This document shows, piece by piece, positions 40,705-41,319 of a DNA stretch of 64,000 nucleotides (its first letter is position 1; each line of letters starts with the position of its first letter). The stretch lies in the NCBI RefSeq assembly GCF_041886205.1, contig NZ_CP169029.1, one strand, 5' to 3'. Origin of the DNA: Escherichia coli (lineage in GTDB: Bacteria; Pseudomonadota; Gammaproteobacteria; Enterobacterales; Enterobacteriaceae). The notes under the pieces are model-generated. The model searched no databases. It saw only the letters and a list, made by a program, of their open reading frames with translations, and was not told the origin of the DNA. The position numbers and the translations under genes were made by a program.

Positions 40705-41319
40705 CGAACTCCTCGTGCTTTATAATTATAAAAGCACAACGCCTTTTATATTCATATTAATTAACGAAATACTGAAGCAACTTAATTTATTCTTCGCTCA
40801 AATTCATTAGCTTAAATTCTTTACCCACAATTGTAGCATAAATAATATTATCGAAAGTCAAAGCTGGGACTATCAAATTTCGCTCATTTTCAAAAAATAC
40901 AACGTAATTTTGGCAATCATCTTAATCGCAGGATCTCTTATCGCATGTAAAAAATTTGTAATGATTAGACAATAACCGCGTTCATTGATCACGCGTTATA
41001 AATGTGAAACTGGCTTCTTGCAGATGCTCTTAACCTCTACAGGAGGATTTATACCACCATTTCAGAACTATCATATTTACCTTAAATGATCATTTCAGCC
41101 ATATAACACGCTCAACCTCGCAAATGGTTTACACTGTCTATTGTTTGGGTAATTTAAGTAAGTCAGCTACGAGCAACCTTGAGTGGGTAGCCAGCAATGG
41201 ACTCAAACCCAATCAGGTGTTCAGATTGTTTCAGAATTGTATTAAAAACAATGTATTAAATAATCTGATAGCGTTTGGTCGTAGTGTGACGCAGACAGCA
41301 AGCTAATAAGGAAATGATT

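Follow-up and report, generated by a model that had tools for sequence, protein, structure and literature searches.

A probable composite divergent regulatory spacer carried by an AT-rich accessory islet between ybjQ and ybjP of Escherichia coli

The window examined here is a 64,000-nucleotide stretch of the Escherichia coli contig NZ_CP169029.1, and within it a 648-bp intergenic spacer (40672-41319) lies between the gene of an accessory islet and ybjP. The best explanation for this interval, which we rate somewhat above even, is that it is a composite divergent regulatory spacer (Part A plus Part B) of a 2.56-kb AT-rich islet that is specific to E. coli and Shigella. In its submitted form the finding is ordinary: it amounts to the promoter and leader region of an orphan accessory gene, together with one unexpectedly conserved element. 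The original prediction had placed the interval at 40705-41313; these limits are wrong because ybjP starts at the ATG at 41320 (K-12 and PGAP annotation) and the islet gene starts at the ATG at 40671. The existence of a non-coding AT-rich spacer separating the two genes is confirmed, with a GC content of 0.30-0.38 compared with 0.51 for the window, and the reading of the interval as a promoter and leader region of the islet gene is supported. The spacer is made up of two unlike halves that differ in both composition and evolutionary rate, with a GC content of 0.30 in Part A (40672-40985) and 0.38 in Part B (40986-41319); the whole window has 0.51 and ybjP has 0.54. None of the spacer is essential, since two natural variants lack part or all of it: L094 is without 40347-41295, and in CUWW06, which carries an IS1, everything to the left of approximately 40988 is deleted. 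The promoters of the islet gene and of ybjP described below are consensus matches.

The islet occupies 38747-41301 (2555 bp, GC 0.33, no strand) and replaces 52 bp of the ancestral ybjQ-ybjP spacer, its edges having been placed using blastn against K-12 and alignments with strains 536 and AVS0747 and with outgroups. Its right edge is blurred: from the TCGTAG at 41281 the sequence is again weakly similar to the ancestral spacer, and the islet-type allele extends to approximately 41350 within ybjP. We found the islet in 1123 of 5426 complete E. coli genomes (21%), and in 1128 genomes the islet region occurs at a median of one place per genome; it is not a REP, BIME, or ERIC sequence. Judging from sequence comparison with relatives, the short spacer is the ancestral state. 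The ancestral spacer is 125 bp long, spacers of 96-130 bp are found in E. albertii, Salmonella, Citrobacter, Enterobacter, and Klebsiella, and the sequence is conserved, including the CTAT(T/C)AT motif. At locus L038, the gap is approximately 97 bp (ybjP at 1280 in that locus). Sequence searches found no mobile-element origin (IS or phage) for the islet: there are no long inverted or direct flanking repeats that would define a transposon, the phage collection gave no matches, and the plasmid collection gave matches only to mislabelled chromosomes. In carrying one cargo gene without an integrase, tRNA, or flanking repeats, the islet resembles other small strain-specific islets found between core genes, and it also resembles intergenic hot-spot islets in that unrelated cargo fills the ybjQ-ybjP gap in several Citrobacter species. 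Unlike such islets, however, the first 30 or so nucleotides of ybjP and its promoter have also been replaced by a divergent allele, and this divergent 5' allele suggests that the islet came in when a donor haplotype recombined homologously, and not through site-specific insertion.

The gene that lies downstream of Part B is ybjP (41320-41835, plus strand), which encodes a DUF3828 lipoprotein and is present here as the islet-type allele with the signal peptide MRYRSLSLLIPCALLLSAC. In K-12, the P1 promoter of ybjP has a start site at -56 that was mapped by primer extension (PMC2760140, citing Lacour and Landini 2004), and expression of the gene depends on sigma-S (bioRxiv 10.1101/2025.03.19.644130, citing Lacour and Landini 2004). 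Homology to K-12 stops at position 38746 of the window, 3 nt before the -10 element (CTATTAT) of P1, and resumes only about 18-40 nt 5' of the ybjP ATG. Thus, the insertion does not merely push the ybjQ and ybjP promoters apart, as had been proposed; the ancestral ybjP core promoter has been split and replaced, not displaced. The islet would have split the ancestral sigma-S-dependent P1 between its -35 region and its -10 element, and with P1 split, ybjP would now have to be transcribed from Part B, the only DNA now upstream of it. The likeliest site is AATAAT at 41259-41264, which lies about as far from the ATG as the old -10 element did and is part of a candidate promoter, TTGTAT-16-AATAAT (41237-41264, plus strand), that we infer from a relaxed scan with invariance counts and from its position relative to K-12 and outgroups. 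The candidate -10 element ends 56 nt before the ATG, and that of K-12 P1 ends 62 nt before its ATG. The candidate resembles K-12 P1 in that AATAAT is spaced nearly as the ancestral CTATTAT is from the TCGTAG, the Shine-Dalgarno (SD) sequence, and the ATG, and in that YbjP is still made in islet-bearing O157:H7, where the protein has been detected (PMC3210124, PMC3936929). It differs from K-12 P1 in several respects. Blastn finds no relationship in the DNA 5' of TCGTAG, and the candidate lacks the C at -13 that is a hallmark of sigma-S; in addition, the old -35 side is now next to ybjQ at a distance of 2.5 kb, and 250 bp of new conserved DNA lies upstream. Our search of the literature for start-site, H-NS, or sRNA data from islet-bearing strains returned promoter data for K-12 and detections of YbjP in proteomes, and nothing else. 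The islet has cut the mapped sigma-S promoter of ybjP, and the 334 bp of upstream DNA that came with it are new and under selective constraint.

Part B, a conserved module carried by the islet to which we assign no strand, is constrained. It has 12 segregating sites in 334, compared with 49 in 265 at four-fold sites of the flanking genes, which is approximately five-fold fewer (p=2e-9), and its nucleotide diversity (pi) is 0.009, compared with four-fold pi values of 0.052 for the islet gene and 0.041 for ybjP. Identity to the deep lineage is 93% for Part B and approximately 78% for Part A. Whether sequences are compared within the common lineage or between the two deep lineages, the change from slow to fast evolution falls at the same place, near 40988. 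Conservation is strongest in the distal 200 bp of Part B (40990-41200) and not beside ybjP, so a simple core promoter does not explain it. In 80 Enterobacteriaceae species, the DNA upstream of ybjP contained no homolog of either part of the spacer, and on this basis we rejected a scenario in which Part B would be the original ybjP leader, lost from K-12 by deletion. Part B would instead be a constrained module that arrived with the islet and that, as we infer, acts on ybjP, with the approximately 250 bp outside the candidate promoter conserved most plausibly for regulation. A more specific proposal, which we put forward only tentatively, is that the segment at approximately 40986-41236 is a discrete islet-borne element (a regulatory platform, a small RNA, or a micro-protein) that has captured control of ybjP in roughly one E. 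coli strain in five, O157:H7 and Shigella sonnei among them, in place of the ancestral sigma-S P1. If this were true, an accessory insertion would have rewired expression of a core envelope gene. Strain-dependent control of ybjP, comparing O157:H7, S. sonnei, and many APEC and ExPEC strains with K-12, would be a testable case of promoter replacement by an accessory element. YbjP has reportedly been described recently as a lipoprotein partner of TolC, which makes such strain-dependent control a concrete case to test.

Two other accounts of Part B can be weighed against a role in regulating ybjP, and we regard both as unlikely. In one, Part B is unconstrained and its low diversity reflects a younger genealogy due to a recombination tract or sweep extending from 40986 to approximately 41400. 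The sharpness of the boundary at approximately 40988 is consistent with this, as is the fact that the low-diversity tract runs into the first 80 nt of ybjP; the region is also a mosaic in which ybjP alleles are chimeric between strains, and four-fold pi is 0.127 for ybjQ as opposed to 0.041 for ybjP. However, the same boundary appears with a rate ratio of about 1:4-5 at two independent depths (approximately 1% in Part B versus 5% on the fast side within the common lineage, and 7% versus approximately 22-26% between the deep lineages, for which islet-gene dS is approximately 0.6), and a single recombination event cannot yield both. Furthermore, Part B could not have recombined with the approximately 79% of strains that are without the islet, and the adjoining four-fold sites of ybjP are four times more diverse than Part B. 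In the other account, Part B is conserved for a product of its own, either a small RNA or the 60-aa protein encoded by an open reading frame (41124-41306, plus strand) that ends on the ybjP SD sequence, rather than as regulatory DNA for ybjP. This frame is open in both deep lineages despite approximately 15 substitutions and is repeatedly predicted by gene callers, its end on the ybjP SD sequence suggests translational coupling, and the peak of conservation, 120-330 bp upstream of ybjP, is too far away for a core promoter. Coding is nevertheless unsupported. The variants within the frame comprise 10 synonymous, 15 non-synonymous, and 2 stop-related changes, and although the resulting synonymous fraction of 0.37 exceeds the 0.21 expected, the antisense frame does equally well. 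Between the lineages, amino-acid identity (88%) is lower than nucleotide identity (92%), there is no SD sequence before the ATG at 41124, Pfam and NCBIfam gave no match, and the only homologs are same-locus hypothetical proteins of E. coli and Shigella. The idea that Part B is a pseudogene remnant or a small gene is likewise unsupported. As for a small RNA, no intrinsic terminator was found on either strand of 38300-41700, no Rfam 15 family matched either strand of 38600-41500 up to E = 1, and Part B itself gave no fold signal (z = -1.28 and +0.11) and no covariation.

On the other side of the spacer lies the islet gene (38902-40671, minus strand), which encodes a 589-aa pentapeptide-repeat protein identified through Pfam Pentapeptide matches. 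With a dN/dS of 0.16-0.24 and an open reading frame that is intact in 35 of 44 sequences, it is a real gene under purifying selection and is mostly intact. The protein is confined to E. coli and Shigella, with one full-length cluster among 1.84 billion representatives; searches for distant homologs returned nothing past generic pentapeptide repeats, a search for PDB sequence matches returned none, and the only other hit was to HalA, far below threshold. The alignments indicate that the true start of this gene is the ATG at 40671 and not the GTG at 40704. The GTG is rejected because it is mutated in three haplotypes (to GTA in L099 and L116 and to GAG in L134) and is shifted out of frame with the conserved MINN... 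N-terminus in three others (L093, L008, and L092) by 1-nt indels between the two codons, whereas the ATG and an SD-like GGGTGA located 8 nt 5' of it (40680-40685, minus strand) are invariant across all haplotypes. Translation of the islet gene would thus begin at the ATG at 40671 by way of GGGTGA, and GAGGAG (40714-40709) followed by GTG (40704-40702) would constitute a pseudo-RBS (40702-40714, minus strand). This bears on annotation, as the islet gene should begin at the ATG at 40671 and databases now mix 589-aa, 600-aa, and "pseudogene" models. One Sakai transcriptome reported induction of ECs_0950 (PMC11301168), a tag that we do not equate with the islet gene here.

Part A evolves neutrally except for an invariant promoter-like block. 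This conserved block (40845-40899, minus strand) contains the best candidate for an islet-gene promoter, with a -35 element of TTGATA (40876-40871), an 18-nt spacer, a -10 element of GATAAT (40852-40847), and a C at -13. At 10 of 12 positions, it agrees with the consensus better than any other site in the spacer, in a region where promoter-like matches number 14 compared with 12.6 in shuffled sequences. All 12 hexamer bases are invariant in approximately 55 sequences, including those of the deep lineage, which is approximately 22% diverged in Part A. Nucleotide diversity is 0.009 in the block versus 0.053 in the leader, and the segregating fraction of the block is 0.055 versus 0.18 at four-fold sites (p=0.015). 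We therefore consider this candidate sigma-70-type promoter most likely to start transcription of the islet gene, with a start site predicted from the promoter consensus near 40840 and a leader of approximately 170 nt (40672-40844, minus strand). The leader appears to drift neutrally, its segregating fraction of 0.214 being comparable to the 0.20 and 0.15 seen at four-fold sites, and it may form two or three weak stem-loops. Upstream ORFs were rejected as a conserved feature of the leader, since mini-ORF length and frame vary between haplotypes. Further minus-strand promoter candidates lie inside Part B (41115-41089 and 41098-41070); they are also invariant and would give a leader of approximately 390 nt. 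The leader of about 600 bp that had been envisaged is unsupported, as the best promoter candidate predicts approximately 170 nt and the far half of the spacer faces ybjP.

Among the putative stem-loops of the leader is a hairpin that was described in the original prediction, which we refer to as hairpin 1. The hairpin is present, and its position, given as 40716-40738, is off by one base: a perfect 7-bp stem with a 9-nt loop occupies 40715-40737, and this is the core of a 9-bp stem that includes one U-G pair (40713-40739, minus strand, mRNA sense). Its placement against the ribosome-binding site is unconfirmed, as the adjacent GAGGAG (40709-40714), which the stem overlaps by only 2 nt, serves the non-conserved GTG alone. 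From the end of the hairpin, it is 27 nt to GGGTGA and 41 nt to the ATG at 40671. In a single sequence, hairpin 1 is thermodynamically no better than chance: 83% of dinucleotide shuffles of the spacer hold a 23-nt hairpin that is at least as stable, three sites in the spacer fall at or below -5.7 kcal/mol versus 3.2 expected from shuffles, the local fold has a z-score of -1.09 and the predicted leader one of +0.35, and the hairpin is missing from the minimum-free-energy fold of the window's own sequence. It does appear in the RNAalifold consensus, and in 12 local haplotypes its folding energies range from -6.9 to -12.5 kcal/mol on the minus strand and from -3.3 to -8.9 kcal/mol on the plus strand. 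Of its pairs, three are invariant, four have one-sided wobble changes, none are compensatory, and two do not form in the deep lineage, which can still fold in a shifted register. Two functions had been suggested for it. A DNA operator is unsupported, as the stem variants are transitions after which G-U pairs can still form on the minus strand but the DNA palindrome is broken; half-site changes in the O157-type, L093-type, L117-type, and deep-lineage haplotypes break the symmetry while the other half is unchanged. The count of 7-mer inverted repeats, 4 versus 1.0 expected (p=0.04), includes overlapping counts, and a 7-bp repeat is near chance. A translational element at the ribosome-binding site fares no better, because the neighbouring SD sequence and GTG are not the conserved start and the stem pairs with neither the conserved GGGTGA nor the ATG, as an SD-sequestering hairpin or RNA thermometer would. 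Hairpin 1 is not a terminator or attenuator either, given the terminator scan of 38300-41700 described above; its stem has 3 G-C pairs and is followed by GAGGAGUUCGG. On the reading that we prefer, hairpin 1 is at most a generic leader stem-loop and neither an operator nor an SD-masking element.

It is possible, though rather doubtful, that hairpin 1 and one or two neighbouring stem-loops are a selected 5'-UTR RNA structure, for example one that protects from 5'-end-dependent decay or tunes ribosome access. Stem-loop 1 can form on the minus strand in 12 of 12 local haplotypes, including one with a 3-nt loop deletion and the register-shifted version of the deep lineage, and all four single-base polymorphisms in its stem keep minus-strand pairing (U-A to U-G twice, G-C to G-U once, and U-G to U-A once). 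That the variants stay foldable on the mRNA strand alone lends weak support to an RNA role and argues against a DNA operator, but four of four compatible transitions correspond to p of only ~0.06 for hairpin 1 alone, and the G/U-rich minus strand favours G-U pairs through composition alone. A second weak hairpin of 7 bp (40779-40804, minus strand) has one truly compensatory pair, which is A-U in 7 haplotypes and G-C in 9, although this helix was picked by the folding program itself. The consensus fold has -19.9 kcal/mol and 41 pairs on the mRNA strand versus -3.6 kcal/mol and 9 pairs on the opposite strand, and column shuffling attained the observed pairing or covariation score only once in 500 trials, with the caveat that the sequences are close relatives of one another. 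The chance-level thermodynamics described above and a leader that is throughout as polymorphic as four-fold sites also speak against selection on its structure. Hairpin 1 resembles the ompA-type 5' stabilising hairpin, SD-sequestering hairpins, and RNA thermometers in being a short AU-rich mRNA-strand stem-loop inside a likely leader and in having variants that keep pairing. Unlike these systems, it is thermodynamically undistinguished and has no Rfam family match; it excludes the SD sequence and start codon that a sequestering hairpin would contain; and, judged by the best promoter candidate, it lies approximately 100 nt downstream of the likely start site, whereas protection from decay requires a hairpin at the 5' end. 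Far less probable still is the model originally proposed for the interval as a whole, in which the approximately 600 bp form one leader and promoter, the hairpin on the ribosome-binding site works as an operator or switches translation, and H-NS nucleates on the tract. GAGGAG does directly follow the hairpin with GTG 4 nt further on, PGAP takes the GTG at 40704 as the start in some genomes, the SD-like purine run is kept in every haplotype, and the AT-richness is confirmed. Against this stand the loss of the GTG or its frame in six haplotypes, the chance-level stability of the hairpin and the broken DNA symmetry of its variants, the location of the best promoter only approximately 170 nt from the ATG, and the behaviour of the distal half as a separate constrained unit facing ybjP. 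A composite spacer serving the islet gene from Part A and ybjP from Part B is the reading that we prefer.

The part of that model that concerns H-NS can be considered separately. AT-rich accessory DNA is the kind usually bound by H-NS, and the GC content of Part A (0.30) and of the islet (0.33) compared with that of the window (0.51) is what would be expected of a site of H-NS nucleation. With 2 mismatches, the high-affinity H-NS motif TCGATAAATT is matched once in the interval, at 40845-40854, and six times in the islet, an apparent enrichment of only about two-fold. We found no publication covering H-NS occupancy at the islet locus. The AT-rich tract is plausibly, and on our preferred reading probably, bound by H-NS. 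The islet resembles the xenogeneic DNA silenced by H-NS and StpA in Enterobacteriaceae in its GC content of 0.30-0.38 over 2.56 kb as compared with 0.51, in its accessory nature (21% of E. coli have it, outgroups do not, and its cargo gene is an orphan), and in that its promoter region is the most AT-rich part, where one near-match to TCGATAAATT overlaps the predicted -10 element. It is unlike simply decaying silent DNA in that its gene has been maintained by purifying selection and is mostly intact.

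The spacer between the islet gene and ybjP is real, AT-rich and non-coding as claimed in the original prediction, with its limits corrected to 40672-41319: ybjP begins at 41320, the same start as in K-12, and the islet gene starts at an ATG at 40671. That prediction holds in part, both as an observation and in its interpretation. Taken as a whole, the interval is ordinary, a divergent regulatory spacer belonging to an accessory islet. Only one aspect is of real interest: a constrained islet-borne module of 334 bp has taken the place of the ancestral sigma-S promoter of ybjP, a core envelope gene.

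In the window, amiD (37541-38371), ybjQ (38368-38691) and a 600-codon ORF, the islet gene as first delimited (38902-40704), lie on the minus strand, and ybjP and artP on the plus strand. Homology to K-12 ends at 38746 and restarts at 41302, such that 52 bp of the 125-bp K-12 ybjQ-ybjP spacer are swapped for 2555 bp. We found the islet in 1123 of 5426 complete E. coli genomes, in single copy and at the same site every time, and it was absent from the phage collection and from true plasmids. Across 80 Enterobacteriaceae species, the ybjQ-ybjP gap measures 96-130 bp almost throughout and no islet-like sequence occurs at these loci. Since the spacer sequence is also well kept across Escherichia, Salmonella and Citrobacter, the short spacer is the ancestral state. 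Several Citrobacter species carry unrelated insertions of 1.1-3.2 kb in this gap (L016:876-4000, L017, L018, L023:2410-4000 and L030), with a histidine phosphatase and a YmcF-like protein as cargo in L016 and DUF1706 and CxxCxxCC proteins in L023; the gap appears to be a hot spot where accessory genes have landed repeatedly.

The islet gene is a real gene, given its dN/dS of 0.16-0.24 and an ORF that is uninterrupted in 35 of 44 sampled sequences. Pentapeptide repeats are present (Pfam), and among 1.84 billion representative proteins the product falls in one full-length cluster, with members exclusively from E. coli and Shigella. The 589-aa protein (38902-40671) is an orphan except for a pentapeptide-repeat core of ~110 aa; it has no sequence relative in the PDB, and its sole NCBIfam match, the Hailong anti-phage effector HalA, falls far short of the cutoff, at 23 of the required 250 bits. 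Our sample of ~55 locus sequences from genomes and metagenomes included a deep lineage (L008, L092, L146-L150) that is ~84% identical to the window islet, compared over 38600-41900, with an islet gene dS of ~0.6. Its flanks are E. coli-like (ybjQ, ybjP and artP at 96-100% identity), and the islet gene is intact in L146-L148. Throughout this sample, ATG 40671, the N-terminus MINN(I/V)S(D/E)Q and a GGGTGA 8 nt upstream are invariant. GTG 40704 is mutated to GTA in two haplotypes and to GAG in one, and is thrown out of frame by 1-nt indels in three further haplotypes. RefSeq models disagree: strain MB53 (L002:1103-2872) has a 589-aa CDS starting at the ATG, while O157:H7, O145:H28 and strain 2D (L004:1298-2533, L005:1295-2533 and L006:1295-2533) have a GTG-started "pseudogene, missing C-terminus", their ORFs in fact running for 588-589 codons without interruption.

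Alignments of the spacer change abruptly near 40988, separating Part A (40672-40985) from Part B (40986-41319). Four-fold degenerate sites in the flanking genes served as our neutral yardstick (islet gene, pi 0.052 and segregating fraction 0.200; ybjP, 0.041 and 0.153), with p values calculated against the pooled four-fold sites. The predicted leader (40672-40844) is neutral (0.053 and 0.214, p = 0.46), a promoter block (40845-40899) is less diverse (0.009 and 0.055, p = 0.015), and Part B is strongly so (0.009 and 0.036, p = 2e-9), its conservation matching that of the core spacer between ybjP and artP (pi 0.007). Identity to the deep lineage is 93% for Part B and ~78% for Part A. A single recombination tract could be invoked for this contrast, but the boundary and a similar rate ratio recur at two depths, and constraint thus accounts for it better. 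In CUWW06 (L007, 3247-4000), IS1 is present and all sequence left of ~40988, exactly the Part A/Part B boundary, is deleted; L094 (3661-4350) lacks 40347-41295, and further genomes have IS2 and IS1 insertions in the islet (hits H5 and H34 among the rearranged cases). Among islet-bearing strains, four-fold pi is unusually high in ybjQ (38371-38691; 0.127, against 0.041 in ybjP), and almost no variation is seen in the 55 bp upstream of that gene (pi 0.004).

The conserved block at 40845-40899 holds TTGATA-18-GATAAT (minus strand), the spacer's best match to a promoter, and 12 of 12 hexamer bases are invariant, deep lineage included. The interval keeps its reading as a promoter and leader region, though not its ~600-nt leader, the predicted leader being confined to 40672-40844. 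The hairpin described there also exists (7-bp core, 40715-40737; full 9-bp stem, 40713-40739, minus or mRNA strand), but not at the ribosome binding site: the true Shine-Dalgarno is 27 nt and the ATG 41 nt away, and the adjoining GAGGAG serves only the non-conserved GTG 40704. In the single sequence it is unremarkable and at chance level, with 83% of dinucleotide-shuffled spacers holding an equal or better 23-nt hairpin, fold z-scores of -1.09 (local) and +0.35 (leader), and a competing pairing in the window's own minimum-free-energy fold. Comparative evidence is somewhat more favorable. The stem can form in 12 of 12 local haplotypes on the minus strand (-6.9 to -12.5 kcal/mol), versus values as weak as -3.3 kcal/mol in several haplotypes on the plus strand. 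The RNAalifold consensus (-19.9 kcal/mol on the mRNA strand, -3.6 on the opposite strand) retains it plus a second helix at 40779-40804. Stem pairing on the minus strand, with G-U pairs allowed, tolerates each of the four single-site polymorphisms, and the second helix has one compensatory pair (A-U to G-C), counts that are few and come from related sequences, a strand rich in G and U, and a helix chosen by the algorithm. The suggested operator role is disfavored because haplotype variants destroy the DNA palindrome. Elsewhere in the minus-strand leader, a perfect TTAATTAA palindrome inside GTTAATTAATATGA (40757-40764) is invariant in every haplotype including the deep lineage, although the leader around it evolves neutrally; it might bind a protein or serve as an alternative -10.

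The GC content of Part A and the islet (0.30-0.33) fits H-NS target composition. Only one near-match to the H-NS high-affinity motif, overlapping the predicted -10, occurs in the interval and six in the islet, and a literature search found no report of H-NS binding at this locus. From its composition, binding of H-NS to the AT-rich tract is plausible; the interval is a promoter and leader region and probably an H-NS target.

The K-12 ybjP promoter P1 has a start site at -56 by primer extension (Lacour and Landini 2004, via the table in PMC2760140) and is given as sigma-S dependent in bioRxiv 10.1101/2025.03.19.644130. Its -10 (CTATTAT, 950-956 of the K-12 locus L001) lies 3 nt past the end of K-12/window homology, so the islet splits P1; rather than simply pushing the ybjQ and ybjP promoters apart, as had been proposed, the insertion replaces the ancestral promoter. 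YbjP has been detected in islet-bearing O157:H7 (PMC3210124; PMC3936929), and therefore a promoter must lie in Part B. One candidate is TTGTAT-16-AATAAT (41237-41264), with its -10 nearly at the ancestral distance from the ATG; CTATCAT (41068-41074) is an alternative candidate. The conservation peak of Part B (40990-41200) is further upstream than the candidate -10. Searches of Part B for an Rfam match, a terminator, a fold signal or covariation gave none. A 60-codon ORF (41124-41306), with its stop on the ybjP Shine-Dalgarno, is open in both lineages and has only same-locus hypothetical proteins as homologs; its between-lineage protein identity is below its DNA identity, and it has no Shine-Dalgarno and no convincing synonymous excess. 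Regulatory DNA for ybjP is the most economical reading of Part B.

On the right side, weak similarity to the ancestral spacer returns only at TCGTAG (41281) and AGCTAATAAGGAAAT. The first ~30 nt of ybjP are a divergent allele (signal peptide MRYRSLSLL... versus MRYSKLTML... in K-12), which suggests that the islet arrived within a donor haplotype via homologous recombination. The ybjP alleles (41320-41835) are mosaic: K-12 and the window share only 84% identity across the first ~280 nt, but ~100% beyond. Strains 536 and AVS0747 are without the islet, yet their ybjP has a window-type body behind a signal peptide and upstream region of K-12 type.
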